A stretch of DNA of 64,000 bases from positions 25,455 through 89,454 of the forward strand of contig JAYZQJ010000125.1 in NCBI GenBank assembly GCA_036149055.1. Direction: 5' to 3'. The position numbers and the translations under genes were made by a program. This DNA comes from Myxococcota bacterium. GTDB lineage: Bacteria > Myxococcota_A > Polyangia > Polyangiales > Sandaracinaceae. This document shows positions 5,473 to 38,808 of this stretch, in pieces (the first letter of the stretch is position 1; every line of letters begins with the position of its first letter). The notes beneath the pieces are model-generated. The model was not told the DNA's origin. It saw only the letters and a program-made list of their open reading frames with translations, and made no database searches.

Positions 5473-5480
5473 TTCGGCTC

Positions 5481-24114: not shown

Positions 24115-24196
24115 CGGCTCCTGCCGCGGCGTCGCGGTCGACGAGCGTCTTGTCGAGATCGAACGCGACGGCTCGAACCCGGTCGGGGGCGCTCAC
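24115..24196 (-). pseudogene. Truncated HAD-hydrolase remnant
   Basis: GTG coupled to the upstream stop gives VSAPDRVRAVAFDLDKTLVDRD (HAD motif I); the frame then runs into antisense panD. Confidence 0.6.
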
Positions 24197-25080: not shown

Positions 25081-25115
25081 CCTCACCGGCAGAGGCGCGG
25101 CTCGGCCCCGCAAAG

Positions 25116-26108
25116 ATGATGGTGGAGAGCGCACATGAACGGATACTACACCCGCGCTTGGCAGCATCCGCCGCCGAGATTACGCTCGCGACCGTGCTCG
25201 AGCCCGCCACGCCTCGGACCGTCGGCACCGAGCTCGTCCGGAGAGAGAGCCGGTTGGACGCGTCGGTCAACTGGGTGCGCGAGGTCGACCGCGGGCTGAT
25301 CGAGGCGCGCTACGTCCGCCGGAGCGATGACTACTTCGTCGTCTATCTCTCCTCGCAGACCGGCTGCCGGCAGGCGTGCCGCATGTGTCACCTGACGGCC
25401 ACGAAGCAGACGCGCATGCGCGACGTGACCCTCGAGGAGCTCCACGCGCAGGCCGACGTGGTGCTGCAGCACTACCGGCGAATTCGCGACGCCCGACCCG
25501 CTCGCGAGGTGCACTACAACTTCATGGCGCGGGGAGAGCCGCTGGTGAGTCCGGTCGTGTTGCACGACTCCGCGACCCTCTTCGACGGCCTCTGGCGACG
25601 GGCGCGCGAAGCCGCGGTCCGGCCGCGGTTCCTCGTCTCGACGATCCTGCCGCGCGCCCTCGGTGACCGCGCCCTCGAGGAGGTCTTCGACCGCTATCAC
25701 CCGGAGCTCTATTACTCGCTCTACTCCACCGACGAGGACTTCCGGCGGCGCTGGCTGCCGAACGCGCTCCCGACCGGCGAAGCGCTCGACCGTCTGGCCG
25801 CCTGGCAGCGCGCCACCTACAAGATCATCAAGATCCACCACGCGCTGATCGACGGCGAGAACGACCGCGACGCCGACGTTCACGCCATCTGCGACGCGCT
25901 CGAGGCGCGCGGCCTCTATGTGCACGTGAACATCGTGCGCTACAACCCCGCGTCGGAGCGGCTCGGCCGCGAGGCGCCGGAGCCCGTCATCGCCCGCCAC
26001 GTCGACATCTTTCGGCGCCGACTTCCGAGTGCCCGCGTCAAAGTGATCCCGCGCGTGGGCTTCGACGTCGCCGCGTCGTGCGGCATGTTCGTCGCGCCGG
26101 AGCGTTGA
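25116..26108 (+). CDS. RlmN/Cfr-like radical SAM protein lacking the N-terminal domain (start uncertain)
   Basis: IEARYV, SSQTGCRQACRMC, NFMARGEP, VNIVRYNP, ASCGMF. Confidence 0.85.
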   Translation: MMVESAHERILHPRLAASAAEITLATVLEPATPRTVGTELVRRESRLDASVNWVREVDRGLIEARYVRRSDDYFVVYLSSQTGCRQACRMCHLTATKQTRMRDVTLEELHAQADVVLQHYRRIRDARPAREVHYNFMARGEPLVSPVVLHDSATLFDGLWRRAREAAVRPRFLVSTILPRALGDRALEEVFDRYHPELYYSLYSTDEDFRRRWLPNALPTGEALDRLAAWQRATYKIIKIHHALIDGENDRDADVHAICDALEARGLYVHVNIVRYNPASERLGREAPEPVIARHVDIFRRRLPSARVKVIPRVGFDVAASCGMFVAPER

Positions 26109-26109
26109 A

Positions 26110-26895
26110 ATGCGGCGGTCGCCAGGGGCGGAACACGACGCGGCCGCGCGGCGACACCGCGCGCAAGAGGGCTTGTTGCTGCGGGTTGCACGTCGTGAGC
26201 CCGAGGCCTTCGCGCTCCGCGGCGGGATGCGCATGCGGCAGCTGACCGTCGCGCGAGAGCGACCGGCTCTCGACGTCGATCTCGTGTGGCGCGGGGGCGC
26301 GGACTCGCGGGGGATCGCGGAGCTGCTGCGCGGCGCGCTGGCCGACGACCAGGTGGGCGACGGGGTCGAGCTCGACCCGGCGCGGCTGCGTGTCGACGCC
26401 ATGCAGGGGCCGCGCGGGCTGATGGGCTACCGCGCGATCACCCCCGCTCGCGTCGATGGTGTAGGCGTGGATCTGCGCGTCGATCTGCGCACCGATCTCC
26501 AGATCTGGCCGCCTCCCCGCGTCGAGCGGTTCCGCGCGACGACGGGGGAGGCGTGGCTGGCGCAGTGCGCGCCCGAGACGCTGCTGGGCCGCAAGGTGCA
26601 GGTCATCGTGGAGGCGGGGACCGATCGCTGGCGCGCGAAGGACCTGCTCGACGTGTCCCGGTTGCTCTCCGGGCAGCCCCTCGACGACGCGATCATCGAA
26701 CGAGCCTGCGCCGACGCCTTCGCCACGGTGGGTTCGAGCCTGGAGGCGGCGCGTGACGTATGGGCGAGCCCCGACCTGCTGGGAGGTCGGCGAGCGCGGC
26801 TGCGGTGGCGGCGCGCGGGCGGCGCGCGAACGCTGGACGAAGTGGTCGCAGGGGTGCGACGAAGGTTGGCGCCGATCCTGGGAGGGGGCTCGTGA
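26110..26895 (+). CDS. AbiEii/AbiGii-like nucleotidyltransferase
   Basis: ALRGG, DVDL, ETLLGRK, RAKDLLDV. Confidence 0.75.
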   Translation: MRRSPGAEHDAAARRHRAQEGLLLRVARREPEAFALRGGMRMRQLTVARERPALDVDLVWRGGADSRGIAELLRGALADDQVGDGVELDPARLRVDAMQGPRGLMGYRAITPARVDGVGVDLRVDLRTDLQIWPPPRVERFRATTGEAWLAQCAPETLLGRKVQVIVEAGTDRWRAKDLLDVSRLLSGQPLDDAIIERACADAFATVGSSLEAARDVWASPDLLGGRRARLRWRRAGGARTLDEVVAGVRRRLAPILGGGS

Positions 26896-28358
26896 ACCGT
26901 TCGCTGATGGAGGAAGTGATCGCGCGTCCCGACGACGACGACGTGCGCGAGGTCTACGCGGACTGGTGTGAAGAGCAGGGCGACCTGCCGCGCGCCAGCT
27001 TCATCCGGGTTCAGCTCGAGCGGGCGCGGCGCGATCCGTGGGACGCCCGCCAGGTTGCGCTGGAGGTCGCCGAGAGGGCGCTGCTCGAAGCGCACGGAGC
27101 GACCTGGCTCGGCGAGGTGGCGGACGTCCCCGGCGTCACCTGGACCGGGTTCGAGCGGGGCTTCGTGGCCCGAGCGGAGGCCGAATCCTTCGGCGCGCTC
27201 GTGAAGGGTCACGACGCGCTCGCCCGCGCGGCTCCCCTCCATCACGTGACGGCGCCCTGGCCGACGTCCGAGCGGGAAGCGGCCGGCGCGCGCGCCATGG
27301 GGACGTTGCGCGGGCTTCGGATCGAGCGCGCCATCATCGACCCGCGCGAGCCGCTCTGGCTCGCCGCGTCGCCGCTCCTCTCCACCCTCACGGAGCTCGC
27401 GCTGGTCGACGGCTACGCGGACGCGCCCGGGACCCACGCGCTGCTCACCTCGCCGCACCTGCGGGGGCTGCGCGAGCTCAGCCTGGCGCGTCACCTCGTG
27501 GGCCGCGAGGGGGTCGTCGCTCTCGTCGAGGTGGATCTGCCCGAGCTGGTCGCCCTCCAGCTCGAGGAGCGCGGAACCACCGACGACAGCTGGAGCCACT
27601 GGGACGGCGGTCTCGACGTGCCGGCGATGGAGAGGCTCGCCCGGTGGCCGGGGCTCGCGCGCATCCGGCGGCTCGACCTCGGCGGCAACCGCATCGAGCC
27701 CGAGGGGTTCGAGGCCCTCTTCGAGTCCGAGCACTTCACCGCCGTGGAGAGCCTGAAGCTCCAGTTCGTCTACGCGATGCTCGCGGAGATTCCCTGGGGC
27801 AGCGCGCCGGGCGCGCTGAGGCTGAAGGCGCTCGATCTCGGGGACAGCTCCGTCTCGACCGAGGCGGCCCAAGTCCTCGCCGCAGCGCCGTGCCTCGCGG
27901 AGCTCCGCCAGCTGGATCTGCCGCGCGCACAGGCCGAGGAGGCGACCGCTCTGCCCACGCTGCTGGACGGCGGCCTCGCCGAGACGCTCCAGGTGCTGGA
28001 CCTCGGCGATTTCGACTCCGTCGAGGCGCCGGTCGTGAGCGCGCTCGTCGGCGCCGATCTGCCGCAGCTTCATACGCTGCGACTGGGATCGGCCTACGAC
28101 ATCGGCGATGGCGACGTCGAGCGTCTCGTGGGCTGGCGTCACCTCGAGCACCTCCGGTCGCTGGCGATCGCGGGAAAGAGCATCGGCTCGGAGACCGCTC
28201 GCGCGCTCGCCGCGGCGCCCCTCGACCAGCTCGAGCGACTCCGGGTTCGCGGGCTGCCCGAGGACGACCGAGCGCTGCTGCGCGAGACGCCGATCGGCCA
28301 GCGTCTGCTCCGGACGGGCGGGCTCGAGCTCTTGGCGCATCCGCAGCGCGGGTGGTGA
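26892..28358 (+). CDS. TIGR02996-domain leucine-rich-repeat protein
   Basis: PDDDDVREVYADWCEEQGD..RASFIRVQ, FERGF, multiple LxxLDLG repeats; GTGA overlap. Confidence 0.88.
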   Translation: MNRSLMEEVIARPDDDDVREVYADWCEEQGDLPRASFIRVQLERARRDPWDARQVALEVAERALLEAHGATWLGEVADVPGVTWTGFERGFVARAEAESFGALVKGHDALARAAPLHHVTAPWPTSEREAAGARAMGTLRGLRIERAIIDPREPLWLAASPLLSTLTELALVDGYADAPGTHALLTSPHLRGLRELSLARHLVGREGVVALVEVDLPELVALQLEERGTTDDSWSHWDGGLDVPAMERLARWPGLARIRRLDLGGNRIEPEGFEALFESEHFTAVESLKLQFVYAMLAEIPWGSAPGALRLKALDLGDSSVSTEAAQVLAAAPCLAELRQLDLPRAQAEEATALPTLLDGGLAETLQVLDLGDFDSVEAPVVSALVGADLPQLHTLRLGSAYDIGDGDVERLVGWRHLEHLRSLAIAGKSIGSETARALAAAPLDQLERLRVRGLPEDDRALLRETPIGQRLLRTGGLELLAHPQRGW

Positions 28359-28371
28359 TCCCGGGCCCCGC

Positions 28372-28400
28372 TTGATGCCCTTCCGGGCGTGGCGTACATG
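28372..28400 (+). promoter_or_regulatory. Possible sigma70-type promoter of the tRNA
   Basis: TTGATG-N17-TACATG, about 30 nt upstream of the tRNA. Confidence 0.4.
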
Positions 28401-28429
28401 CACGAAACCCATCACGACCACTCAGCAGA

Positions 28430-28513
28430 GCCGGGCTGGCGGAATTGGCATACGCAGGCGACTTAAAATCGCTCGGGGGTGACCTCATGAGGGTTCGAGT
28501 CCCTCGCCCGGCA
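28430..28513 (+). tRNA. tRNA-Leu, anticodon TAA; CCA not encoded
   Basis: Acceptor stem GCCGGGC/GCCCGGC+A, D-loop GGAATTGGCATAC, anticodon arm GGCGA-CTTAAAA-TCGCT, long variable arm, T arm GAGGG-TTCGAGT-CCCTC. Confidence 0.96.
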
Positions 28514-28515
28514 GA

Positions 28516-29472
28516 TCACAGCCAGCCGCGCCGACGGTAGTCGGTGTAGGCCTCGCGCGCGCCGCGCTCGAAGTCGTGGGCGGGCGCCCAGTCGAAGGTC
28601 TGCATCGCGCGCCGCGGATCACAGCTCTGGTGTGGCTGGGTCGCGTCGGCCGCCTTGTCGCGGGAGAGCATCACCGGCCGATCGCGGAGCCGCCCGGTCA
28701 GCTCGGCCGCGGCGCCCAGCGCCTTCATCGCGAGCGAGGGCACCGGGAGCACTCGCACCCGCCGGCCCACCGCGGCGCCGATGAGGTGCGCGACCTCGGC
28801 GCGCGGGTAGGGCGCGGGCTCGGCGACGAAGTAGGCGCCGCGCGGGTGCTCGGTCTCGAGCGCCCGGGCGATGACCTCGGCGCAGTCGGCGCCGTGCAGC
28901 ATCGACATCGTGCCGCTCGGGTGCACCATCGGCACGACGCCGCGCTCGGCGGCCCGGAAGAGGCCCACCATGCGGTGCTCGCCGGGGCCGTAGAGCGCGG
29001 GGGGGCGCAGGCAGGTGACGGGGAGGGGGCTGGCGAGCGCGAGCGCCTCGGCGGCGTGCTTGCTCCGGCCGTAGTGGCTCACCGGGGCGTCGGGCGCGCC
29101 GTCCGCGTGCGGTGTGGGCCCGGGCGACGGGCCGTGGGCGGCGAGGCTGGAGACGAGCACGAAGCGACGGAGGGTCGAGGGCGCGGCTTCGATCAGAGCG
29201 CGGGTGGTGTCGGTGTTGCCGCGGTAGAAGTCGGCGACCTCGCGCACGATGCCGCCGCCCGCCGCGTGCACCACCGCGTCGGTCTCCATCGCCGGGCGCA
29301 GCGCCTCGGGGTCGCTCAGCGCGCCGCGCACGACCTCGACGCCGAGCGCCTCGATCTCGCCGGTCCGGCTGGTCGGCCGCGCGAAGGCGCGGACGGCGTG
29401 GCCGCGCGCGGTCAAGGCCCGGCAGAGGTGGAGGCCGAGGAAGCCGGTGGCGCCGGTGACGAGGACGCGCAC
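28516..29472 (-). CDS. NAD-dependent epimerase/dehydratase (extended SDR)
   Basis: TGATGFLG, VSSLAA, YGRSK, LRPPALYGPG. Confidence 0.92.
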   Translation of the reverse strand: MRVLVTGATGFLGLHLCRALTARGHAVRAFARPTSRTGEIEALGVEVVRGALSDPEALRPAMETDAVVHAAGGGIVREVADFYRGNTDTTRALIEAAPSTLRRFVLVSSLAAHGPSPGPTPHADGAPDAPVSHYGRSKHAAEALALASPLPVTCLRPPALYGPGEHRMVGLFRAAERGVVPMVHPSGTMSMLHGADCAEVIARALETEHPRGAYFVAEPAPYPRAEVAHLIGAAVGRRVRVLPVPSLAMKALGAAAELTGRLRDRPVMLSRDKAADATQPHQSCDPRRAMQTFDWAPAHDFERGAREAYTDYRRRGWL

Positions 29473-29473
29473 G

Positions 29474-30547
29474 TCACTCGCCGAAGGGCGAGGTCCGCCC
29501 GAGCGCGATCGCGCGCGCCACCGGGAAGGACCGCCGGACGTGGGGCGCCTCCTCGAGCGCGTGGCGCGCCATGGCCACCGACACCCGGTAGATGGGCGCG
29601 ACCTGCGCCCGGGAGGCGGGGCTGAGGTTGCGGGCCTCGCGCGCGCGCTCCTCCTCCATGATCGTCAGCACGGTGTTCCAGCCGAGCGCGGCGAAGATGA
29701 GGCGGTGCTCGGGGCGAGCGTCCCGCGCGCGCTCGCCGTGCTCGACCAGGGCGCGCACCTCGGCGCGGCGCTGGCTCAGCTCCTCGTCGCTCAGCGCGGC
29801 GAGGAGGGAGATGGCGCGGGAGAGCTCGCGCTCGTAGGGCGCGAAGGTCGGCGTCTCGCTCGGGACCCGCCCGCGGGCCTCGCGCACGAGGTCGACCGGC
29901 ACCGCGATGGTCAGGCCGGAGACGCCCTGGTCGGGGCGGCCGCGCATGGACACGATGCCGATCAGCTCCCCCGCCTCGTCGATGACCGGGCCGCCCGAGT
30001 TGCCCGGGTTGACCGACATGCTCAGGTGCAGGAGCCCGTCGCGGGTGATGCGGCTGACCTCGCCGCTCGAGGCGGCCGGGTTGGGCTCGCGCACGTCCAG
30101 CGGGTAGCCGCTGACGCTGACCCGCTCGCTCATCGTCAGCCGCCGCGCCGCGTCCGGGAGCGCGACGTGGTGCGGCAGATCGCGGTCGACCGCGACGAAG
30201 GCGATGTCGTGCGCGATGTCGACGTAGACCGGACGCGCCGGGATCGGGGTGGACTCCCCGGGCGGGATCACCGTCCACGCGTGCATGCCCCACACCACGT
30301 GGCGGGCGGTCAGGACGAGGCGCGGGCCGATGGCGACGCCCGAGCCGTGCCCCATCGAGGGATCGGCGCCGACGCGGCGCACGCCGGTGGTGCGTCCGGT
30401 GCCCTGGGTCGGCGCGATGCCGGACACCCCGATGACGCGCACGGTGGCGCGGTCGATGGGGCGCAGCTCGACCCCCTGCGCGCGCGCGGCGCCGGCGGTG
30501 AGCGAGAGGCCGACGAAGAGGAGGGGCGCGAGGGTCGAGCGCGTCAT
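29474..30547 (-). CDS. Secreted trypsin-like serine protease
   Basis: Signal peptide; LTARHVV, HDIAFV, NPGNSGGP. Confidence 0.9.
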   Translation of the reverse strand: MTRSTLAPLLFVGLSLTAGAARAQGVELRPIDRATVRVIGVSGIAPTQGTGRTTGVRRVGADPSMGHGSGVAIGPRLVLTARHVVWGMHAWTVIPPGESTPIPARPVYVDIAHDIAFVAVDRDLPHHVALPDAARRLTMSERVSVSGYPLDVREPNPAASSGEVSRITRDGLLHLSMSVNPGNSGGPVIDEAGELIGIVSMRGRPDQGVSGLTIAVPVDLVREARGRVPSETPTFAPYERELSRAISLLAALSDEELSQRRAEVRALVEHGERARDARPEHRLIFAALGWNTVLTIMEEERAREARNLSPASRAQVAPIYRVSVAMARHALEEAPHVRRSFPVARAIALGRTSPFGE

Positions 30548-31581
30548 CAGAGGATCCGGAAGGAGTCGAAGTAGGCCATCAGGATGCGGGCTCGGTCGCG
30601 GCTCCGCAGCGAGGCGCGCGAGCCGATCGCCTCGACCACGTAGAGGCGGGTCTCGGTCTGGTACACGCGGGTGAAGGCGCGGGTGCCGCTCTGGTCGGTG
30701 GTGAAGACGCGGCCGGGGTAGCCGTTGGTCTGCACCGGCCGCACCTCCCGCTGCAGGCGCAGCTGCTCGGTGAGCTGGCCGAACGCGTCCTCTGGGACCA
30801 ACCGGCCGAAGGAGACGACGCGGACCCGGTAGCGCCCCCAGTCGTCCCGCGTCTCGTAGGTCCAGACGGGGGTGCGCTGCCCGCCGAGCACCAGCTCGCT
30901 CTCCTCGAGCGCCGGCGCGCGGGGCATGGAGATCGCGAAGTCGGCCTCGGGGAGATACAGCGGCGTCCACGTTCCGTCCGCATGTCGGGCGCCCTGGGCG
31001 GGCATGAGCGCGTGCTCCGGGTCGAGCTGGATCGAGCCCATGAACCGGCTCGCGATCCGGAGCGCGTCGCGGCTGCGGCGTGGCACGACGGCCAGCGCCA
31101 CCACGACCCGGTCGGCGCCGACGAACTGCCGGATGGCGACGAAGGTGTCGTTCTCGCCGCGCCCGGTGTCCTCGCGGGCGTAGAAGCCCTGCACCGTCAG
31201 CCGCTGGCTGCGGTCGCGCTGCAGGTCCGCGTGCTCGAAGATGGACTCGGCCAGCGCGGCGGCGGCGATGAGCGGGTCGCCCACGAAGCCGCCCTCGAAC
31301 TGGTTCACGTGCACGGCGAAGAGGCCGTAGGGGGCCTCGACCGCGACGCTGGTCTGCCGCACGCGCGCGCCATCGTCGGTGACGTCCTCGTCGGTCTCAC
31401 CGGTCGGCGTCGCCGGCATGCTCACGCGGATACCGGTGCCGCGCGGGGACACGTCCTGCCAGCCCACCGTCTGCGCCGTGACCGGGCGGGCCCAGCCGTA
31501 GCGCTGGCGGGAGCGGCAGCTGGGGAGGAACAGCAGGCAGGCGAGCGCGACGAGCGCCCAGCCGAGGGACGAGCGAGCCAT
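30547..31581 (-). CDS. Lipoprotein with two tandem homologous domains
   Basis: LPSC lipobox; repeats W..V...GIRVSMPATP / W..L...DFAISMPRAP ending RFMGSIQL / YFDSFRIL. Confidence 0.7.
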   Translation of the reverse strand: MARSSLGWALVALACLLFLPSCRSRQRYGWARPVTAQTVGWQDVSPRGTGIRVSMPATPTGETDEDVTDDGARVRQTSVAVEAPYGLFAVHVNQFEGGFVGDPLIAAAALAESIFEHADLQRDRSQRLTVQGFYAREDTGRGENDTFVAIRQFVGADRVVVALAVVPRRSRDALRIASRFMGSIQLDPEHALMPAQGARHADGTWTPLYLPEADFAISMPRAPALEESELVLGGQRTPVWTYETRDDWGRYRVRVVSFGRLVPEDAFGQLTEQLRLQREVRPVQTNGYPGRVFTTDQSGTRAFTRVYQTETRLYVVEAIGSRASLRSRDRARILMAYFDSFRIL

Positions 31582-31662
31582 GGGTCTCCGGGTACGGCGA
31601 GGAGCGAGATTTGCACCCTCTCGCGCCTCGCCCCGCGGGTCAATCCATTTTGGCCCGGCCGG

Positions 31663-33318
31663 TCACTCCTCCAGCAGGCGCTCCAGCAGGGCGGCGACGC
31701 GGATCTGCGATCGCTGCGGCGCCAGCACGGCTTCCACCGTGGAGCGGATGTCGCCTCCGCTCCGCCCGACCCGCGCGACGAAGAGCGAGATCTCGGAGTC
31801 CCGGCGGGAGGGGCTGCCGTGCCACGAGTGGTAGGGCCCGCTGAAGTAGGTGCGGTCCTTCTCCGGGATGTCGTGGCCGAGGTTCGAGATGAGGATCACG
31901 TCGCCGGCCAGGTGCCCCTGCGGGCCCACCGCGAGCTGCTCCAGGCGCCGGGCGACGTCGACCCAGTCGTCCCGCGGGTGGGATTCGAGCCAGGCGCTGA
32001 CGTCGTGGGCGCGCTCTCCGTCGAACACCCGGAAAGGTCGCTGACGCTCGCCGGGGGCGGCCGGCTCCCGCACGAGCACCATCGCCAGGCTGCCCTGCAG
32101 CGACGGGAAGGGATCTCCGTCCTGCGAGGCGCGCCAGAACGCGCGAGCGGCGGCCAGGACGTCGTCTTCGTAGCGCGGCGGCGCCGACCAGTCGCAGCGC
32201 TCGCCCTCCGCCGCGCACCGGCTGCGGTCGGCGAGGTAGAGGTAGGCGAGCCCGCCCTGGTAGGCGAGCACGGCGTCGAAGTCGGCGTCCTCGGGGAGCG
32301 TCAGCTCGGGGGGGCGCGGGCGGAAGCCGGCGCGGCGCAGGACGGCGGGCGGGTCGTCCCGGGTGTCGTCGACGCTGAGCGCGTGCTGCTCGTCGTGCTG
32401 GACCGGGGTGTGCCCGTGGTCGCTGACGACGACGATCCACGTGTCCTCGAGCGCGTCGTCGGCGCGGTAGCGGTCGAACACCCGCCGGAGGCCGGGATCG
32501 ATCACGTTCATCAGGTGCTCGTGCTGCTCGCCGAGCGGGTCCTCGCGGGAGTGCGCGACGAGGTCGACGCCCGGGAAGTACATCGTCTGCACGTCGGGCA
32601 GGCCGAAGGCCTCGATCGCCTCGAGGACCTCCTCCACCGAGCCCTCGTCGAGCTGGGCGTAGGCCTCCTCGCTCACGCTGTGCTCGCCTCGCAGGGACTC
32701 GGGCAGGATCGAGAACATCTGCACCGCGTCGAGCGCGTGCGGGGTCGTGTAGACGTCGGCGCCGCGGTGCACCGGGCCGAGGCTCGAGTGGCTGCGGAGG
32801 TCGAGCCGCTCGAAGATCGTCTCGACCTGGATCCGCTCGCCCATGAACCCGTCGGTGTGCATCTGCATCGCGTGGTCCATGCCGCGCACCGAGACCGGGG
32901 CCGGGGCGAAGAACGCGGGCACGGTGCGGTCGAACCACTCGTTGCCGGGGACGCCGCTCTCGCCGGCGGGGGCCCCGGTGTAGATGGTCGTCCAGGCGGC
33001 CATGGTGGTGCTCGGCAGGATGCTGAGCACGCCGCGGGCCCGATAGCCGTGGGCGAAGAGGCCGGGCTCGTCCTGGCCTTCGCCCGCGATCGCCTCGAGG
33101 CTCCGGAGCTCACCTCCGTCGATCGCCGCGCCCAGCTCGTCGCCGCCGACGCCGTCGAGCCCGATCAGGATGAGGCGAGTGCCGCCGCGAGCCGCCCGCA
33201 TCGGCCGGCGGAGCTGCTGCACGCCCGAGTGCTTGATGAGGGACACCGCCTCGGACACGGAGACGCCGCTGCCGCAGGCGAGCGTGAGCGAGAGGGCCAG
33301 TGGGAGCATCCTGCGCAC
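31663..33318 (-). CDS. Alkaline phosphatase superfamily (nucleotide pyrophosphatase/phosphodiesterase-like) lipoprotein
   Basis: IGLDG, PSTT nucleophile, DLVAH, VSDHG, WHG. Confidence 0.85.
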   Translation of the reverse strand: MRRMLPLALSLTLACGSGVSVSEAVSLIKHSGVQQLRRPMRAARGGTRLILIGLDGVGGDELGAAIDGGELRSLEAIAGEGQDEPGLFAHGYRARGVLSILPSTTMAAWTTIYTGAPAGESGVPGNEWFDRTVPAFFAPAPVSVRGMDHAMQMHTDGFMGERIQVETIFERLDLRSHSSLGPVHRGADVYTTPHALDAVQMFSILPESLRGEHSVSEEAYAQLDEGSVEEVLEAIEAFGLPDVQTMYFPGVDLVAHSREDPLGEQHEHLMNVIDPGLRRVFDRYRADDALEDTWIVVVSDHGHTPVQHDEQHALSVDDTRDDPPAVLRRAGFRPRPPELTLPEDADFDAVLAYQGGLAYLYLADRSRCAAEGERCDWSAPPRYEDDVLAAARAFWRASQDGDPFPSLQGSLAMVLVREPAAPGERQRPFRVFDGERAHDVSAWLESHPRDDWVDVARRLEQLAVGPQGHLAGDVILISNLGHDIPEKDRTYFSGPYHSWHGSPSRRDSEISLFVARVGRSGGDIRSTVEAVLAPQRSQIRVAALLERLLEE

Positions 33319-33339
33319 GAGAGCGCAGTTAGGCCCCGA

Positions 33340-33951
33340 TCAACGAGGCTGCACCGTCAACCAGTTCGAGCCGGTCTCGCTGTCCCGATAGAGGTGCAGC
33401 CGGACGTTGGTCGGCCGCATCCGGTAGGTGAAGGTGTAGTCGATGAAGGCGTCGAGCTCGTCGCTCTCGACGCCCTTCTTGAAGCGTCCGTAGACGAGGC
33501 GGTTGTTGCAGCAGGGCGCGAGCTCCCCGAAGAAGTGCTTCCCCTCGGCGTCCTCGCGGGGGATGCCGCTGAACCGGGTCTCGGTGGCGTTGTAGAGGAG
33601 CACGTGGCCCTCGTCGCTGAGCTGGATGACGCCCACCGGGAGCACGTCGATCTTCGAGCGGGGCAGGTCCGGCAGGACGCGCGCGATCTCGTCGGCGTGG
33701 AGCCGGGCGTGACCGTTGATGTGGTCGCGCTCGTCTTCGAAGTCGCCGGGCGCGTCGATGCCCTCTTCGAGCAAGCTCTGGACGTCGCGGCGCCGGTACC
33801 GACGGTGGCCTCCCGCCGTCTTGCGCGCTGGCAATCGTCCCGCGTCGGCCCAACGCTTGATGCTCGTGGGGCTCACGCCGAGTCGTTCGGCGGCCTCACT
33901 GGTGGTGAGAAGCTCACCCTGCTCTTCGGTCGCGAGTTTGGAATCAGTCAT
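33340..33951 (-). CDS. MerR/excisionase-type HTH fused to a photoactive yellow protein domain
   Basis: LTTSEAAERLGVSPTSIKRWADAGRL...TAGGHRRY, then PVGVIQL..EG.VLLYNATE...GKHFFGELAPC...FKKGV...DYTF.YRMRPT.V; AGAGGA RBS. Confidence 0.9.
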   Translation of the reverse strand: MTDSKLATEEQGELLTTSEAAERLGVSPTSIKRWADAGRLPARKTAGGHRRYRRRDVQSLLEEGIDAPGDFEDERDHINGHARLHADEIARVLPDLPRSKIDVLPVGVIQLSDEGHVLLYNATETRFSGIPREDAEGKHFFGELAPCCNNRLVYGRFKKGVESDELDAFIDYTFTYRMRPTNVRLHLYRDSETGSNWLTVQPR

Positions 33952-34174
33952 GGCGTCCTCTGATGAAATCGAGAAGCTCCTTCCGAAAGCGGAGGGGGAC
34001 CTGGAGTCGCAGCTCGTCAGCCTCTACGCGGACCGGGCCAAGCTCTACCGGGAGCTCGGGACGGCCGATCCCGACGACATCATCGCGATGGTGCGGCGGC
34101 TCGAGGCCCAGCTCGTCTCGCTCTACGAGGAGCGGGAGCGGGCCTTCGCCGGGCGCGACATCGAGGGGGACTGA
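33950..34174 (+). CDS. Small coiled-coil protein with a duplicated LE(S/A)QLVSLY motif
   Basis: LESQLVSLYADR and LEAQLVSLYEER lie 33 codons apart with synonymous differences, implying protein-level selection. Confidence 0.7.
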   Translation: MASSDEIEKLLPKAEGDLESQLVSLYADRAKLYRELGTADPDDIIAMVRRLEAQLVSLYEERERAFAGRDIEGD

Positions 34175-34383
34175 GCGCTTCACGTCGAGAACGCTTGGGC
34201 CAGTCCCCAGGGCTGGCCAACCCGACGCGAACAATCGCCCCGCCCCCCGGTGTGGCCATCCGGCGGGTGGCGCAAGATGCCTCGGAGCCCCGGTTTTCTT
34301 GACCGCGAGGCGTTCCGTCCGGCACTCCCCGAGGAGCCAGTGGCCTCGCGTCGGGCGAATGACGCGGGCCCAGGGAGGTCGAC

Positions 34384-34617
34384 ATGATGAAGGAAGAGCT
34401 TCTCGAGCGGGTGAGCGAGCTGGTCCGGCAGGTGACGGAGGCGCGCTTCGAAGGCGCCCTCTACGCCAAGCTGGCCCGAGCCCACGGCTACGCCGACGGG
34501 TACATGCGGGCGCTGATCGACGCGGGCCTCGTGGACCGGGACGAGCTGCTCCGCGCCGTCTCGGACGCGCGCAAGGACGCGCTCGACGCCGACGACGCCC
34601 GCCGCCACGCGGCCTGA
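34384..34617 (+). CDS. Small hypothetical protein
   Basis: GGGAGG RBS, typical codon usage, AHGYADGYMRAL motif, terminator after the stop. Confidence 0.75.
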   Translation: MMKEELLERVSELVRQVTEARFEGALYAKLARAHGYADGYMRALIDAGLVDRDELLRAVSDARKDALDADDARRHAA

Positions 34618-34628
34618 CGGAAACGAAG

Positions 34629-34660
34629 AGGGCGCGACCGGAGTCCCGGCCGCGCCCTTT
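34629..34660. terminator. Probable bidirectional terminator
   Basis: AGGGCGCGaCCGG-agtc-CCGGcCGCGCCCT+TT between convergent genes. Confidence 0.65.
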
Positions 34661-34677
34661 CGGCGTCTGCGGGGCGC

Positions 34678-37600
34678 CTACTCGAGCGGGATCACGCGCA
34701 CGCCGTTGAGGGTGTTGCGCATCTCGCGCTGCCGCCACCACATCACCGCGTAGCTGACCGAGCCGAGCAGCTCCTGCTCGAGCCAGTATCCGGTCGAGCC
34801 CTCGGTGTCGAAGTGGAGGATGGCCCAGTCACCGCCGCCGGCCGGTCGGACCGCGACCACCGCGTCCTGCGCCGTGGCGTCCTGATAGACGACCCGCACG
34901 CCGCCGGCCTCGTCGACCACGAGCGACGCGTCGTCGCCGACGATGTGGCGGCCGTCGGTGAAGCGCTCGGTGCCGTCGGTCGAGCCGTCGTCGACGACCT
35001 CGCGGGTGACCACGGTGCCGTCGGCCTGGACCTGCGCGTAGCGGAGTGTCTCCTCGGTGCCGTCGACGTAGGCCACGTGCCAGAGGCCGGCCGCGTCGAT
35101 GAAGAGATCGGCGCTCATGCCCGAGTCCCCGACGTCCGGGTCCATGCGGGCGTAGCCGTCGATGAGGAAGGGCGCGCCCCAGGCGGCCCCGTCGAAGTGC
35201 ACGCCATGCACGTTGCCGGCCGAGCGGTCGTAGTACACGAGCGCCAGCTGCCCGCCGCCCATGTCGGCCAGCGAGGTGTAGAGCCCGAGCGCGGGCGGCA
35301 TGTCCTCGACGTAGTTCATCGGGAGCGACGCGCGGCAGCTGCCGTTGAAGCAGACGTCACCGCCGGTGCACTCGGCGCTGCAGTCGGAGGTGGGCGTGAC
35401 GCACTGGCCGTCCTCGATGCAGGTGGTGCCGAGCCCGCAGAACTGCGGGCGGCAGGCCATCGGCCCCGCGGCGACCTCGGTGATCGTCCAGTCGGTCTCG
35501 GACGCCGGGCTGCCGATGTTGGCCGTGGCCACCATGACCGCGCTCCGGATGTTGCCCGGCGTCTCGGTGTCCTCCGAGATGCGGAGGTAGGAGACGACCG
35601 GCACGCCCGCGTCGGTGAGGACGAGCGAGGCGTAGCGGCCGCTGTCGCCGGTCGCGTCGACGGTGTGGGTGGCCCACGCGCCGCCGGGGCCGCCGATCGC
35701 GAGCTTGAGGGCGCCGTTGCCGACGTCGTAGTAGGCGATCAGGAAGCTGCCGTCCTGGCGGACCATGCTGGTCCACTGGCCGACGTCGTCGCCGGGCGCG
35801 ACCACGCCGCCGCGCCAGCCGCTCGGGCCGCGCGCCACCGGGCCCTCGGGCGCTCCGTCCACGATCTCCCACTCCACCTCGGTGCCGTTCCACGGGCCGA
35901 AGACCAGGTCGCCGTAGGGGAGGCCGGGGGTGCCCGGGCTGTAGCCGCTCACGAAGACGTTGCCGGCGTCGTCGATCACCGCGTCGAGGTGGGTCGCGAG
36001 CTGCCCGGGCGGCAGCGGCGGCTTCTCCTCGCACGCGGAGCAGGACACGCCGCACGAGCCGTCGAGGGTGACGTTGTCGACCGGGCAGGTGAAGCCCGGG
36101 TCGCACAGGTCGTCGACGTCGTAGGCGACGCACATGTCCATCGCCTCGCAGCAGATCTCACCGCTGGTGTCGGCCGGCGGGGAGGCCGGCGGGCACCCGC
36201 CGGAGCAGGGGCCCGGCGGGTCCATCGGGTCGCCGCACTCGCAGCCGCTGGCCAGGAGCGCGGAGAGCGCGATCACCGAGAAGAGCGACAGAAAGGGAAG
36301 GCGCCGGCGGCGACGCGGGACCTCCCGCGCCCGCCGTCGAGTCAGCGCGAGGCCGAAGAGCCCGAGCAGCGCGAGCGCGCCGAGGGGCAGCTTCGAGCCG
36401 GCGCCCGGAGCGGCGCAGCCGCAGCCGTCGCCCGAGGCGGCGTTGGGCAGCCCGCGGATGAGCGCCTGCTGCGAGCGGCCGACGTTGCCGGCCTCGTCGC
36501 GCGCCTCGACGAGCTCGACCTGCGCGTCGCCCTCGAGCGGCATCGCCCGCTCGGCGGTCCACGCGGTCCAGCTCCCGTTCACCAGGAAGCGGTACTCGAG
36601 GGCGTCCTGGGGCGAGACCACGTCGGTCGCGTCCACCTCGATGCCCTCGTAGGTGCGCTCCGCCACCACGGTCGGCGGCAGGATGTCGACCACGAGCTCG
36701 GCCCGCGCGGGCGACGCGTCGACGCTGAGCGGCTCGCCGGCCACCCGCGCCCGGGCCTCGATCTCGTGGCGGGCCTGGAGCAGCAGGATCTCGTCGGCGA
36801 TCTGGATCCGCTCGTCGGTGGTCCAGGCCGACCAGGGCCCGCCGTCGATGCGGTAGCTGTACTCGTACTCGACGCCCAGGGGGCCCTCGGCCGCGAAGTG
36901 GAGCCACGCGCGGTTGCCGTCGCCCTCGGCCCAGGTCTCCGGGTTCATCGAGGTCCGGTCGAGCTCGAGGTCGCTGACCTCGACCGTGGTCTCGACCGGC
37001 GCGGAGTAGGGCATCGGGCCGGCGAGCGCGAGGTTGGCGAAGATGGCGAGGAAGCGATCCTCACCCTCGGTCGCCTGGGTGATGCCGCCCTCGGGAACCT
37101 CGAGGTTGAAGCCCATGATCTCCGGGAGGTCGATCGGGCTGATGCCGCTGGTCAGCATGCCGGCGAACGAGCTGATGACCGTCTCCAGCGTGCCGGCGAG
37201 GGCCTCGGGGCGCTCCGCGAGCAGCTCGCTGTTGGTGACCATCGAGTTCTCGGCCTCGACGCCGAGGATCATCGGCACGATCTGTCCGTCCTCGACGACC
37301 AGGTTCATGGAGATCACCAGGTCGGTCTGGAAGGTCATGAAGCGCACGTAGCGCTCGGTGCTCCAGACGTAGAAGTCCATCTGCGCCTGCGGCAGCGTGA
37401 TCGTCAGGAGCGGATCGTCGCCGGTCCCCGTGCCGACCGTGAAGTCCGGCGGCAGCTGCGGCCGCACCGCGATGGTCAGCGCCGCGTTCTCCTCGGGGAA
37501 GGTCAGCTCCGGCAGCGACATGATCGCCGCCGAGACGAGCCCGGTGCTCAGCTGCTGGCTGAGCCGCGTCCCGGCCCCGATGCACAGCGCGCCGGAGTCG

Positions 37601-38808
37601 AAGAACCCGTACCCGGCGTAGTCCATGTAGTCCTCGGCGATGCCGATGCCGAGGTGGGTCTCCGTGGTGGAGCCCGGGATGGTGTTCGCGCGGAACGCCG
37701 CGGCCCGTGGGATCTCGGGGAGCGGTGGCGGCTCCACGATGGGCACGCACGGGTTGTGCGCCGGCGTCTCGGTGAACGTCCGGTCCATGCCCATGAAGCC
37801 TCCGTAGAAGAAGAGGCTCATACCCTCGTTCACCGCCTCGCCGTCGCCGCCCGACGCCAGCAGGAACTGGATGTAGGCGTGCGTGCCCGGCGAGAACCCA
37901 CCGATGAGGTTGCCGCCGAGGTCGCCGCGGCCGTCGCTCCCCAAGAGGATGGGCACGCACTGCGCGTCCTCGTTGTTCTCGAAGCGGCAGGTGGAGTCGG
38001 GGTTCTCGTCCGGCACCGAGAACGTGCCGGTCGGGCAGCCGTACTCGCCGCGGGTCTGACACAGCGCGTCGTTCACCGCGTCGTCGACGAGCCCGTCGAC
38101 CTGATCCTCGACCATGTCGATGATGAAGTTCTTGATGAAGCCCAGGTTGAGGGCTCCGCAGGAGCCGAGGAATCCGCCCGAGATGCGGATGTCCTCGTCC
38201 TCGATGCCCTGGCCCGGCGCCAGGGTGGCGTTCTCGACGATCACCTCGGTGTAGCCCTGCCGTGCGGCGCGCACCGGGTCGTCGACGGGGATGCCGGCGA
38301 AGCGGATGTCTGCGTCGAAGCCGACGATGGGGCGACTGCCGCGACGGCTGTCGAGGTCCAGATCGCACGTGCCGTTCCAGCGATCCCGCTCGCCGGCGCG
38401 ATTGCGGCTGTCGAGGATGAGCTCGATGTGCGCTCGCAGGACGTTCGGGTCCGTGGGGGAGATCTCGAGAGAGTCGATCTCGAGGTGGGCCGTACAGTCG
38501 TTGTCCTCGCAGATCGTGATCGTGATGCCGGCGTCCACCTCCTGGCGGTCGACGTCGAAGTCGAGGCCGTCGGGCATGAACGTCATCACGATGGCCGCGA
38601 TGTTGTCCTCGATGAACTGGATGCCGCTCGAGGTGAGCCTCACCTGCGCGGAATCGTCGATGCGATGCTCGAGCGGGTAGGCGCCCGGGATCGGCGTGAT
38701 CCCGCACTCCTCGCAGCCCGAGCAGCCGCCGTCGCAGGCCGTGGCCGCGAGCGCGAAAGCCACGATGAGCGTGGAACGATAAAAGCTAGATACGTCGAAG
38801 CGGTCCAT
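34678..38808 (-). CDS. 1376-aa surface protein: BPI/LBP-like N-half, internal MYXO-CTERM, second lipobox, propeller-like C-half
   Basis: ATAC lipobox, QVRLTSSGIQFI, GCGCAAPG..LALLGLFGLALTRRR, LASGC, repeated YYD/GRYASL motifs. Confidence 0.8.
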   Translation of the reverse strand: MDRFDVSSFYRSTLIVAFALAATACDGGCSGCEECGITPIPGAYPLEHRIDDSAQVRLTSSGIQFIEDNIAAIVMTFMPDGLDFDVDRQEVDAGITITICEDNDCTAHLEIDSLEISPTDPNVLRAHIELILDSRNRAGERDRWNGTCDLDLDSRRGSRPIVGFDADIRFAGIPVDDPVRAARQGYTEVIVENATLAPGQGIEDEDIRISGGFLGSCGALNLGFIKNFIIDMVEDQVDGLVDDAVNDALCQTRGEYGCPTGTFSVPDENPDSTCRFENNEDAQCVPILLGSDGRGDLGGNLIGGFSPGTHAYIQFLLASGGDGEAVNEGMSLFFYGGFMGMDRTFTETPAHNPCVPIVEPPPLPEIPRAAAFRANTIPGSTTETHLGIGIAEDYMDYAGYGFFDSGALCIGAGTRLSQQLSTGLVSAAIMSLPELTFPEENAALTIAVRPQLPPDFTVGTGTGDDPLLTITLPQAQMDFYVWSTERYVRFMTFQTDLVISMNLVVEDGQIVPMILGVEAENSMVTNSELLAERPEALAGTLETVISSFAGMLTSGISPIDLPEIMGFNLEVPEGGITQATEGEDRFLAIFANLALAGPMPYSAPVETTVEVSDLELDRTSMNPETWAEGDGNRAWLHFAAEGPLGVEYEYSYRIDGGPWSAWTTDERIQIADEILLLQARHEIEARARVAGEPLSVDASPARAELVVDILPPTVVAERTYEGIEVDATDVVSPQDALEYRFLVNGSWTAWTAERAMPLEGDAQVELVEARDEAGNVGRSQQALIRGLPNAASGDGCGCAAPGAGSKLPLGALALLGLFGLALTRRRAREVPRRRRRLPFLSLFSVIALSALLASGCECGDPMDPPGPCSGGCPPASPPADTSGEICCEAMDMCVAYDVDDLCDPGFTCPVDNVTLDGSCGVSCSACEEKPPLPPGQLATHLDAVIDDAGNVFVSGYSPGTPGLPYGDLVFGPWNGTEVEWEIVDGAPEGPVARGPSGWRGGVVAPGDDVGQWTSMVRQDGSFLIAYYDVGNGALKLAIGGPGGAWATHTVDATGDSGRYASLVLTDAGVPVVSYLRISEDTETPGNIRSAVMVATANIGSPASETDWTITEVAAGPMACRPQFCGLGTTCIEDGQCVTPTSDCSAECTGGDVCFNGSCRASLPMNYVEDMPPALGLYTSLADMGGGQLALVYYDRSAGNVHGVHFDGAAWGAPFLIDGYARMDPDVGDSGMSADLFIDAAGLWHVAYVDGTEETLRYAQVQADGTVVTREVVDDGSTDGTERFTDGRHIVGDDASLVVDEAGGVRVVYQDATAQDAVVAVRPAGGGDWAILHFDTEGSTGYWLEQELLGSVSYAVMWWRQREMRNTLNGVRVIPLE

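Follow-up and report, generated by a model that had tools for sequence, protein, structure and literature searches.

The window analysed here, a stretch of 64,000 nt, carries a pair of divergent genes whose start codons overlap by 2 nt (Table 1). The larger, HTH-PYP, encodes a two-part protein with an N-terminal HTH_17/MerR-type domain (residues 14–63) and a C-terminal PYP domain (aligned over residues 81–200); the smaller, s74, lies directly beside it. The first-pass annotation had read the larger frame as an HTH joined to a PYP-type domain, and the ORF together with the Pfam, NCBIfam and structure matches agree on this. Codon composition is GC3 0.89 and GC2 0.45 for HTH-PYP and GC3 0.91 and GC2 0.39 for s74. 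The gene call for HTH-PYP in the protein collection (P0001) is 178 residues long and begins at Val26, so that the first HTH helix is lost; the 203-residue ATG form matches the 203-residue homologue P0002 at 81% identity with 100% of the length matched. The gene is of marine myxobacterial origin. RNA-library contigs from two studies contain it at an identity of at least 99%, a weak hint of expression, as DNA carry-over is possible and the contigs give neither start nor strand.

Table 1. Features of the HTH-PYP/s74 locus, in positions of the 64,000-nt window.
Feature	Position	Strand	Remarks
HTH-PYP CDS	33340..33951	-	ORF with ATG start, 203 aa plus stop codon
Winged HTH, HTH_17/MerR/excisionase type	33763..33915	-	residues 13-63; Pfam, TIGR01764 and 6ama matches
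Flexible linker	33697..33762	-	residues 64-85; low AF2 pLDDT and variable length in homologues
PYP domain	33343..33696	-	residues 86-203; TIGR02373 and H. halophila PYP alignment
Cys147 codon (= PYP Cys69), predicted chromophore attachment site	33511..33513	-	Cys kept in 56/56 homologues
s74, 74-aa helical-hairpin protein	33950..34174	+	divergent from HTH-PYP; identical 74-aa gene call P0138 in the collection

The N-terminal half exceeds the cut-offs of four HTH families, namely HTH_17 (PF12728, E 7.1e-16, 58.7 bits, cut-off 27, residues 14–63), MerR (PF00376, E 3.8e-11, 43.1 bits, cut-off 28.2), MerR_1 (PF13411, E 9.7e-10, 38.9 bits, cut-off 21.6) and excise (TIGR01764, 45.7 bits, cut-off 28.8), in line with the MerR/excisionase-type HTH assigned at first pass. 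Its best solved-structure match is BldC (6ama, E 5.7e-10, residues 8–62), and a nine-residue core (K32, R33, W34, T45, G47, G48, H49, R50 and R51) is invariant in all 56 homologues. MerR family regulators possess a long C-terminal coiled-coil dimerisation helix after the wing. Here, no such helix was found: the PF13411 match ends at model position 46 of 69, and in the AF2 model helix 54–62 is followed by a disordered linker. The B12-binding domains PF02607 and PF02310 gave no Pfam match in HTH-PYP. Among the relatives that share the HTH only, nine carry B12-binding domains, seven carry receiver domains and one consists of the HTH alone. Furthermore, the same genome encodes, on contig C71, a 288-residue paralogue composed of HTH_17, B12-binding_2 and B12-binding domains, with an HTH 55% identical to that of HTH-PYP and a crtI-like gene 1.2 kb away, which strengthens the analogy to CarH drawn earlier. 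The sharing of one HTH among PYP, B12-binding and receiver proteins suggests that sensors have been swapped on a common DNA-binding module.

For the C-terminal half, the NCBIfam model photo_yellow (TIGR02373) aligns with residues 86–201 over model positions 7–122 of 124 (E 5.8e-29, 100.7 bits; 101.9 bits in the genome search), below the equivalog cut-off of 143.05 bits, and HTH-PYP is its sole match in the 9.9-Mb genome. The Pfam PAS model gives E 1.2e-6 over residues 101–186, while solved chains of H. halophila PYP match at E 7.6e-23 to 1e-20. Scores of this order lie well outside what chance would give. Residues 81–200 align with PYP 3–122 in a single gapless stretch, PYP numbering being converted to that of HTH-PYP by an offset of +78. 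At this offset every pocket residue named at first pass is correct: Y42, E46 and C69 correspond to Y120, E124 and C147, and T50 and R52 are replaced by S128 and I130. The additional cysteine in place of T70 is likewise present (C148), but is a subgroup trait found in 9 of 56 homologues. F62, F96, Y98 and M100 are also retained, the last three as F174, Y176 and M178. Throughout the 56 homologues, C69, E46, F96 and Y94 are invariant (56/56), followed by Y42 (55/56), M100 (54/56) and Y98 (49/56), whereas R52 is retained in only eight, with Ile in the protein studied here.

In the AF2 model, the PYP-type N-terminal cap (helices 86–95 and 98–101) precedes the PAS core; cap and core are collinear with solved PYP, and Cys69 is accompanied by the Tyr42/Glu46 hydrogen-bond pair. 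Both domains are predicted with high confidence (block pLDDT 92–95 for the HTH and 92–98 for the PYP domain), the linker is not (pLDDT <50 at residues 68–79), and with a whole-protein pTM of 0.62 the HTH is left undocked on the PYP domain. The homologues differ in the spacing between HTH end and PYP core, which is most commonly 14 residues but can be as short as 9 or as long as 79. Compared with H. halophila PYP (1kou), HTH-PYP is alike over 120 gapless residues (E about 1e-22), in Cys69, Tyr42, Glu46, Phe96, Tyr98 and Met100, and in a predicted PAS fold with N-terminal cap helices (pLDDT >90); it differs in having Ser and Ile for T50 and R52, and in forming the C-terminal half of a DNA-binding-type protein with neither pcl nor tal nearby, whereas H. 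halophila PYP is a stand-alone protein of 125 residues whose gene adjoins both. The check proposed in the first-pass annotation, PYP versus generic PAS, thus comes out on the side of PYP: by TIGR02373, the PYP structure matches and a chromophore triad conserved across the family, the C-terminal domain is, at the level of sequence, a genuine PYP family member.

The census suggested along with it shows that the architecture recurs. HTH-PYPs form 56 clusters at 90% identity and about two at 50%, most of them 163–203 residues long; both domains are retained in the 56 clusters down to 40% identity, and the homologues cover 88–100% of HTH-PYP. The architecture occurs in 19 species genomes; every one was assembled from metagenomes, and most bear the label Myxococcota. 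In a tree of 194 PYP domains, 58 of them with an HTH (105 columns, quick IQ-TREE), seven changes of the HTH label are needed, a number as low being reached in none of 500 shuffles. At least one change is forced by the starred branches, and the tree is compatible with a single origin of the fusion as well as with several. HTH-PYPs are a real, if narrow, family, probably maintained by selection.

As to the chromophore, the first pass had noted that no tyrosine ammonia-lyase (TAL) or coumaroyl-CoA ligase (pCL) gene lies in the window. Indeed, none of its 42 ORFs matched the Pfam families Lyase_aromatic or AMP-binding, a TAL or AMP-ligase gene was found within 6 kb of HTH-PYP at none of 19 loci (136 ORFs scanned), and the genome-wide matches to the two families lie on contigs other than that of HTH-PYP. 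On contig C22, a second MIO lyase, which matches best the family tyrosine ammonia-lyase BagA/FevW and, among structures, a tyrosine aminomutase and the R. sphaeroides TAL, shares a cluster with a coumarate-ligase-like AMP-ligase (best family TIGR02372). This pair fits the earlier proposal of a chromophore that is made elsewhere or scavenged, and a supply from within the genome is possible. However, the cluster is of the aryl-polyene/flexirubin-like pigment type, and both genes may serve the pigment pathway only. Among ten other HTH-PYP genomes, which are incomplete MAGs, a second, non-hutH-type MIO lyase occurs in one and a TIGR02372-like ligase (E≤1e-25) in none.

These results bear on a different reading, by which the PYP-like pocket would sense chemicals and not light. 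Hydroxycinnamates, hydroxycinnamoyl-CoA or another aromatic thioester would bind to it or acylate it, and the protein would signal to the transcription machinery how well aromatic acids are supplied, for example those for the aryl-polyene pathway or phenolics derived from plants or algae. The lack of dedicated supply genes beside HTH-PYP and of the ligase in the other carriers fits such a sensor, as does the placement of the genome's sole TAL-like and ligase genes in a pigment cluster expected to yield p-coumaroyl thioesters; so does the poor conservation of R52, which forms the lid of the pocket in model PYP. Yet nearby supply genes are commonly missing for accepted PYPs too, 32% of pyp operons containing pCL and 5% containing TAL (PMC12826048), and only one of five control genomes with a stand-alone PYP had a TIGR02372-like ligase, which was missing in the other four, so that its absence discriminates poorly. 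Moreover, invariant Cys69 and Glu46, near-invariant Tyr42 and conserved Met100 and Tyr98 make up the set of residues used in PYP photochemistry, a non-covalent ligand sensor does not need a cysteine that is kept in every homologue, and a p-coumarate-acylated protein would absorb blue light regardless. We therefore regard a purely chemical sensor as unlikely.

The small neighbour s74, which is absent from the first-pass annotation and new here, matched no Pfam or NCBIfam family and gave no usable match in a protein atlas search. It is nonetheless tightly linked to PYP: at E≤1e-10, HTH-PYP has an s74 homologue no more than 700 nt away at 18 of 19 loci, at 13 of them divergently, and a stand-alone PYP has one equally near at 31 of 60 loci, which span many phyla. 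Beside stand-alone PYPs it always lies upstream on the same strand, and at E≤1e-3 their count rises to 50 of 60. Natural s74-PYP fusions exist as well (P0244, and P0269 with P0358/P0359). The core of s74 is a helical hairpin of about 45 residues, modelled by AF2 in the P0269 fusion as helices 12–30 and 35–55 with a pTM of 0.75, against 0.62 for HTH-PYP. The long N-terminal extensions of the Salinibacter-type PYPs (P0061–P0070) are acidic low-complexity tails, with no s74 match. A complex prediction for the PYP domain (residues 78–203) with s74 gave a score of 0.01 and a mark of 0.32, and the tool returned no verdict. A precedent for a small partner encoded next to PYP is found in Rhodobacter capsulatus, where, according to a preprint, the product of the gene beside pyp, PBP, binds Rc-PYP in a light-dependent manner (bioRxiv 10.1101/2021.06.01.446672); as described there, PBP differs from s74 in its 142 residues and predicted mixture of helices and beta-sheets. 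On the basis of its linkage to PYP, we propose that PYP domains in general signal with s74 as a partner. More tentatively, and with the odds against it, s74 could be the long-missing general downstream partner of PYP that docks in one photostate, and would then form with HTH-PYP a self-contained light switch in which, depending on light, it serves as a co-repressor or an anti-repressor at its own divergent promoter.

The same tight linkage, taken with the absence of a linked chromophore-loading gene, could also mean that the PYP domain is chromophore-free in vivo and works as a PAS-type dimerisation or s74-docking module, its input being the level of s74 or something else, but not light. That the fold is usable without the cysteine is shown by an s74-repeat protein at another locus (L057), which carries a Cys-less PYP-like domain. 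In the HTH-PYPs themselves, by contrast, Cys69 has persisted without exception while linker and termini vary freely, which argues for purifying selection on the attachment site; hence we consider a chromophore-free domain very improbable.

Beyond s74, conserved neighbours are few. The type-I phosphodiesterase gene at 31663–33318, 22 nt downstream of HTH-PYP, was considered as a conserved partner and dismissed, as it is unlinked to the fusion elsewhere; the same applies to the trypsin-like protease, the 344-residue protein and the epimerase of the window, and the 77-residue ORF and 1376-residue protein are common only to the closest relative (L013). Photoprotection genes neighbour HTH-PYP at 3 of 19 loci, two of which (L030 and L031) have phytoene desaturase/synthase-like genes directly beside it; at the third (L029) it lies amid genes for photolyase, DUF1722, GTP cyclohydrolase II and others. 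At the remaining 16, as in the window, no obvious light-related neighbour was found. Searches of the control region were likewise negative. No sigma-70-like promoter was found in 33200–34700 (0.1 in shuffles) and no inverted repeat in 33860–34060, and the single direct repeat detected lies inside the s74 coding sequence. Across the s74/HTH-PYP control regions of 14 loci, the commonest 8-mer, with one mismatch allowed, occurred at 9; 20 shuffles gave peaks of 8–10, and no shared operator motif emerged. Since the start codons of s74 and HTH-PYP overlap, the window offers no intergenic DNA for a classical operator.

The missing operator motif is what one would expect if the PYP sensor, for light or ligand, were mounted on an architectural or recombination HTH, that is, a BldC-like nucleoid-associated protein or an excisionase-like recombination directionality factor, which is not promoter-specific. 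HTH_17 and the excisionase model indeed give the best scores, and the domain is nearer to BldC (57.9 bits) than to CarH (5c8d, E 0.28). However, the score remains under the 77-bit cut-off of the BldC family (NF033787), Streptomyces BldC is a stand-alone domain of about 70 residues whereas HTH-PYP has 203 with a sensor domain attached, and BldC is itself a transcription regulator. Furthermore, neighbours scanned in the window and at the 19 loci include no integrase, transposase or prophage genes, and an HTH of this type coupled to B12-binding and receiver domains is a regulator architecture. Altogether, an architectural or recombination role seems quite unlikely, and a transcription factor remains the preferred reading.

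As such, HTH-PYP resembles CarH/LitR (5c8d; NF052513) in combining an N-terminal MerR-superfamily winged HTH with a C-terminal light-sensor module, in the two relatives that adjoin carotenoid genes and in the B12-binding domains of its HTH-only relatives, while the sensor of CarH/LitR is cobalamin instead of PYP, and sequence similarity to T. thermophilus CarH is negligible (NF052513 14.2 bits, cut-off 400). In CarH, light dissolves an oligomer, a behaviour that HTH-PYP may or may not share. Small PAS-family photosensors fused to DNA-binding domains are also known from EL222 (LOV-HTH) and the aureochromes (bZIP-LOV), the latter with the DNA-binding part N-terminal to the sensor as in HTH-PYP; their chromophore is flavin and their DNA-binding folds differ, whereas a p-coumarate thioester is predicted for HTH-PYP. 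Known multidomain PYPs comprise Ppr and Ppd (PYP-phytochrome-kinase or -GGDEF/EAL), MCP-PYP, PYP-V4R and Rec-PYP (PMC12826048; PMC9664959), in all of which PYP is likewise the input module, MCP-PYP also having it C-terminally. An HTH, MerR or DNA-binding output is absent from the PYP architectures in the main texts of these two censuses, and one HTH_17+PAS protein is listed without comment in supplementary file 1 of one of them. The same census classes as multidomain only proteins above 200 residues, whereas most HTH-PYPs have 163–203. As far as the two censuses go, the earlier statement that the architecture was not known to be characterised holds, and HTH-PYP is probably a light-controlled gene switch of unstudied design.

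We thus propose, with a probability of roughly 60%, that HTH-PYP acts together with s74 as a one-component transcription factor for blue light; its chromophore, its DNA target and the direction in which it responds to light we infer as follows. A chromophore of the p-coumaric acid type would be thioester-linked to C147, the acid coming either from the organism's own MIO lyase and coumarate-ligase-like enzyme or from scavenged p-coumarate. Blue light would isomerise the chromophore and loosen the PYP N-terminal cap, which is directly attached to the HTH. The change in the cap would alter self-association, s74 binding or both, and with them the cooperative binding of the HTH to DNA. Its first target would probably be the control region common to the HTH-PYP and s74 genes, and targets in relatives would probably include the adjoining carotenoid and photolyase genes. 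Since the HTH has its closest relatives in fusions to B12 light-sensor domains, we lean, if only slightly, towards a dark-state repressor that is released by light, as are CarH and LitR.

For about forty years, PYP has served as a model photoreceptor. How it transmits its signal is still an open problem (PMC9664959, PMC12826048). Here, PYP is wired to a DNA-binding domain, so that its output could be measured by gel shift or reporter, and s74 is a concrete candidate partner that extends across many phyla. Should s74 prove to be a general partner, HTH-PYP/s74 would be the first PYP system in nature whose molecular output is defined, and would offer a compact, two-part, flavin-free optogenetic transcription module. 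For optogenetics, HTH-PYP would offer DNA binding under blue-light control in one very small chain of 203 residues, independent of flavin and cobalamin. For the myxobacteria, it would bring the number of light-sensing routes to three, one of which, the B12-based CarH type, is encoded in this genome too.

The protein that the first-pass annotation had read as a helix-turn-helix (HTH) joined to a photoactive yellow protein (PYP) domain does combine these two parts. Pfam places an HTH_17/MerR-type HTH at residues 14–63 (E = 7.1e-16; MerR 3.8e-11; MerR_1 9.7e-10) and a PAS fold at residues 101–186, while residues 86–201 match positions 7–122 of 124 of the NCBIfam photoactive-yellow-protein model (E = 5.8e-29), favoring PYP over a generic PAS domain, with a score of 100.7 bits that lies below the equivalog cut-off of 143.05. 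Among solved structures, the ~30 top matches are entries for Halorhodospira halophila PYP or mutants of it (starting at E = 7.6e-23), residues 81–200 aligning to PYP 3–122 in a single gapless alignment; the Ppr PYP domain follows at 1e-18, and the HTH half matches BldC (6ama, 5.7e-10). The AlphaFold2 model (pLDDT 89) consists of two confident domains and a disordered linker (residues 68–79 below 50), and its pTM of 0.62 means that no fixed packing is predicted. Codon-position GC is coding-like for 73% GC DNA (GC3 0.89, GC2 0.45). The stored gene call (P0001, 178 aa) begins at GTG/Val26 and thus lacks the first HTH helix; since the ATG 75 nt upstream restores this helix and yields the 203-aa form also found in the 81%-identical homologue P0002, we place the start codon at the 33951 ATG.

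Coordinates of the features discussed
Feature	Sequence	Position	Strand	Remarks
HTH-PYP ORF	window	33340–33951	−	ATG start, 203 codons
Start region (ATG versus stored GTG start)	window	33876–33951	−
s74 (helical-hairpin gene)	window	33950–34174	+	74 codons; opposite HTH-PYP; ATG overlaps fusion start codon by two bases
~9-kb insert relative to L013	window	24193–33318
Small ORF	window	34384–34617	+	77 aa
Large protein gene	window	34678–38808	−	1376 aa
Pigment-type gene set	L012 (contig C22)	1654–13548
B12-type regulator	L105 (contig C71)	1439–2302	−	288 aa
Phytoene-desaturase-like gene	L105 (contig C71)	3535–5079	+	divergent, 1.2 kb from the B12-type regulator
PAS histidine kinase	L105 (contig C71)	10953–12533
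s74-PYP protein	L057 (Rhodothermales MAG)	4823–5845	+	340 aa
Tandem HTH-PYP paralogues	L028	5318–5902; 6001–6525	+	43% and 47% identical to query

The chromophore pocket, too, is as had been read from the sequence: with an offset of 78 to H. halophila numbering, the protein retains Y42, E46 and C69, carries Ser for T50 and Ile for R52, and has a second Cys at position 70. Of 5.8 billion clustered proteins searched, 87 matched at E ≤ 1e-5. In 56 of these (P0001–P0056; 163–247 aa, 40–99% identity, query coverage 88–100%) the HTH precedes PYP; another 14 have PYP alone, and 17 share the HTH alone, the last group with B12-binding domains (9), receiver domains (7) or neither (1). Across the 56 fusion homologues the HTH core K32-R33-W34 and T45/G47-G48-H49-R50-R51 is invariant, and the pocket is kept at C69, E46, F96 and Y94 (56/56 each), Y42 (55/56), M100 (54/56) and Y98 (49/56). 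Position 50 is S, A or T, R52 is kept in just 8 and the second Cys occurs in 9; the spacer between the domains is 9 to 79 residues long. When 1.84 billion representatives clustered at 50% identity were searched with the profile, 24,224 matched at E ≤ 1e-3, and the best 150 of these include only two that cover the whole profile (P0210, P0211), besides a 108-aa fragment matching both halves (P0236). Judged by sequence, the family is thus real but narrow. P0209 (4799 aa) and P0208 (1174 aa), with 31 and 4 profile-matching stretches that score best in the PYP part, are predicted to be giant multi-PYP proteins.

When one genome per species was searched, the full fusion was found in 19 loci (L013–L031), all from metagenome-assembled genomes labeled mostly Myxococcota, Myxococcales or Sandaracinaceae, the last being the closest named relatives. 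The same stretch occurs in seawater metagenomes of several studies, and RNA-library contigs from two studies contain the locus at ≥99% identity, some bridging both start codons, with DNA carry-over possible. One locus, L028, holds a tandem pair of HTH-PYP paralogues, with s74 downstream on the strand they share.

Of the window neighbors compared by tblastn with the 19 fusion loci, s74 alone is broadly conserved. It has a coding-like codon pattern (GC3 0.91, GC2 0.39) and an identical gene call in the protein collection. An HMM of its ~45-residue core (E ≤ 1e-10) places it no more than 700 nt from the fusion at 18 of the 19 loci: 13 have it upstream and divergent, 2 upstream on the fusion's strand, 2 downstream on that strand, and 1 has it convergent. 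The sole locus lacking it has just 228 nt of upstream sequence. The same linkage extends to stand-alone PYP genes, with s74 within 700 nt at 31 of 60 loci at E ≤ 1e-10 (40 at 1e-5, 50 at 1e-3), all 31 strong matches lying upstream on the same strand, often as two or more tandem copies, in Planctomycetota, Armatimonadota, Ignavibacteria, Spirochaetota, Gemmatimonadota, Janthinobacterium and others. The family comprises at least 178 clusters, has no match in Pfam or NCBIfam, and among 120 clusters listed every source name is "hypothetical protein" save that of P0167 ('predicted aldo/ke...'). Two Q-L-x-x-L-Y motifs, located on two helices, account for its invariant positions. Natural fusions place three s74 units ahead of a Cys-bearing PYP (P0244) or join one unit to PYP (P0269, P0358, P0359), with P0239 as a weaker case; in the AlphaFold2 model of P0269 (pTM 0.75), s74 folds as a hairpin of two helices (12–30 and 35–55). 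Gene linkage in many phyla combined with domain fusion classically marks a functional partnership, and s74 and PYP are accordingly predicted to be functional, probably physical, partners. In L057, several s74 repeats precede a PYP-like domain (TIGR02373, E = 2.8e-16) in which Ser replaces Cys69, with a canonical PYP gene directly downstream; this Cys-less protein may be a decoy or regulatory pseudo-photoreceptor. Length variants of s74 comprise Spirochaetota forms of 83–88 aa with a short basic, beta-like C-terminal tail (L071, L073, L080, L081, L086, L091), mostly planctomycete forms of 111–137 aa with a ~50-residue C-terminal extension (L038, L039, L046, L059, L066, L068, L078, L082), and two-unit forms of 164–166 aa (L033, L042, L045, L052, L058, L070).

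As had been noted, the window lacks genes for chromophore supply: none of the 42 ORFs scanned encodes an aromatic ammonia-lyase or AMP-ligase. The 9.9-Mb genome, in which HTH-PYP is the sole PYP match, has two MIO lyases. At the aligned positions that we take to be the selectivity switch, the hutH-like enzyme has Ser-His and the enzyme on C22 Tyr-His. Of the NCBIfam families, tyrosine ammonia-lyase BagA/FevW fits the C22 enzyme best, outscoring hutH although its 455 bits fall below the cut-off; among solved structures, tyrosine aminomutase and an R. sphaeroides tyrosine ammonia-lyase entry are closest to it. The gene that scores highest in this genome against the model of PYP-type 4-coumarate-CoA ligases (124 bits, cut-off 334.7) lies some 1.7 kb upstream of this lyase. 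Both candidates share their locus with three ketosynthase-type genes and with genes for a ketoreductase, an FAD halogenase, a lipid-A-type acyltransferase and a LolA2-like protein; the locus is predicted to be an aryl-polyene/flexirubin-like pigment cluster. This cluster is the only plausible in-genome source, and its content suggests that p-coumarate and its activated form are plausibly made in the source cell, but for another pathway. No lyase or coumarate-ligase gene lies within 6 kb of the fusion at any of the 19 loci; of ten other carrier genomes, nine have a hutH-type lyase, one has a second, Tyr-His-type lyase and none has a coumarate-ligase-like match at E ≤ 1e-25. Such absence is usual for the PYP family and discriminates poorly, since only one of five control genomes with stand-alone PYP has a ligase-like gene (adjoining pyp) and pyp operons include the ligase in 32% and the lyase in 5% of cases in the sections of the 2025 census consulted (PMC12826048).

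Genomic context at some loci speaks for light regulation. The HTH belongs to a type that also occurs combined with other sensors: on contig C71 of the same genome, an HTH_17/MerR domain 55% identical to that of the fusion precedes B12-binding_2 and B12-binding domains, the same architecture as CarH/LitR. Farther along this contig is a PAS histidine kinase gene. Phytoene desaturase/synthase-like genes abut the fusion in L030 and L031, and L029 clusters it with photolyase, a DUF1722 protein, GTP cyclohydrolase II and ferrochelatase; neighbors at the remaining 16 of 19 loci are housekeeping or unrelated (Tol-Pal genes at three), and no light-related gene was found among the window ORFs scanned. 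Upstream of s74 or the fusion, four loci (L018, L019, L022, L026) encode TonB-dependent-receptor-barrel proteins of 730–986 aa, the first three with a TonB C-terminal domain; large proteins without matches occupy the same position in L017, L020, L024 and L025. The type-I phosphodiesterase 22 nt downstream of the fusion is no conserved operon partner, because it belongs to an insertion relative to the closest relative, L013, placed between the fusion and aspartate decarboxylase plus amidohydrolase/TSP3/LTD genes, which also carries sulfotransferase-like, radical SAM, LRR, epimerase, trypsin-like protease and 344-aa protein genes. Shared only with L013 are the small ORF (GC3 0.94, coding-like; 82% identity) and the 1376-aa protein (no Pfam match; 65% identity).

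The sequence shows a full set of PYP photochemistry residues, a complete domain for DNA binding, a tether of variable length and a small helical protein encoded by a linked gene; chromophore, DNA target and polarity are inferred. p-Coumarate would be bound at Cys147, and blue light would cause its isomerization and proton transfer from Glu124, loosening the cap helices (86–101). These helices, which unfold in the signaling state of the H. halophila protein, are the PYP segment joined to the HTH here. The likely consequence would be altered self-association and/or s74 binding and, thereby, altered cooperative DNA binding. The shift of s74 from co-directional in 31 of 31 strong stand-alone cases to divergent in 13 of 18 fusion cases suggests the shared control region as a target, which would imply autoregulation; the control regions searched yielded neither a promoter nor an inverted repeat nor a shared motif. 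By analogy with the B12-type siblings we slightly favor repression in the dark that light relieves, although the polarity may be opposite, as in EL222.

The main texts of the 2022 and 2025 censuses (PMC9664959, PMC12826048) describe no DNA-binding PYP fusion, and among titles and abstract openings on PYP with MerR, helix-turn-helix, excisionase or Myxococc we found no natural PYP-HTH fusion, in keeping with the first-pass view of an architecture not known to be characterised. The portion of the 2025 census consulted counts proteins as multidomain only above 200 aa (PMC12826048), a threshold that excludes most HTH-PYP proteins from that class; in its supplementary file 1 one HTH_17+PAS protein and in its sequence file two "helix-turn-helix domain-containing" entries appear without comment, while HTH is absent from the architecture column of the 2022 table in rows matching HTH-type terms (PMC9664959). 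The PYP photosensor and the HTH fold are each known already, as are one-component transcription factors that respond to light through LOV or B12 sensors; in the parts of the literature covered, neither a natural output from PYP to DNA nor the s74 companion family is described. With the HTH-PYP and s74 pair, PYP signal transduction becomes directly testable, and the pair would offer a very compact optogenetic part.
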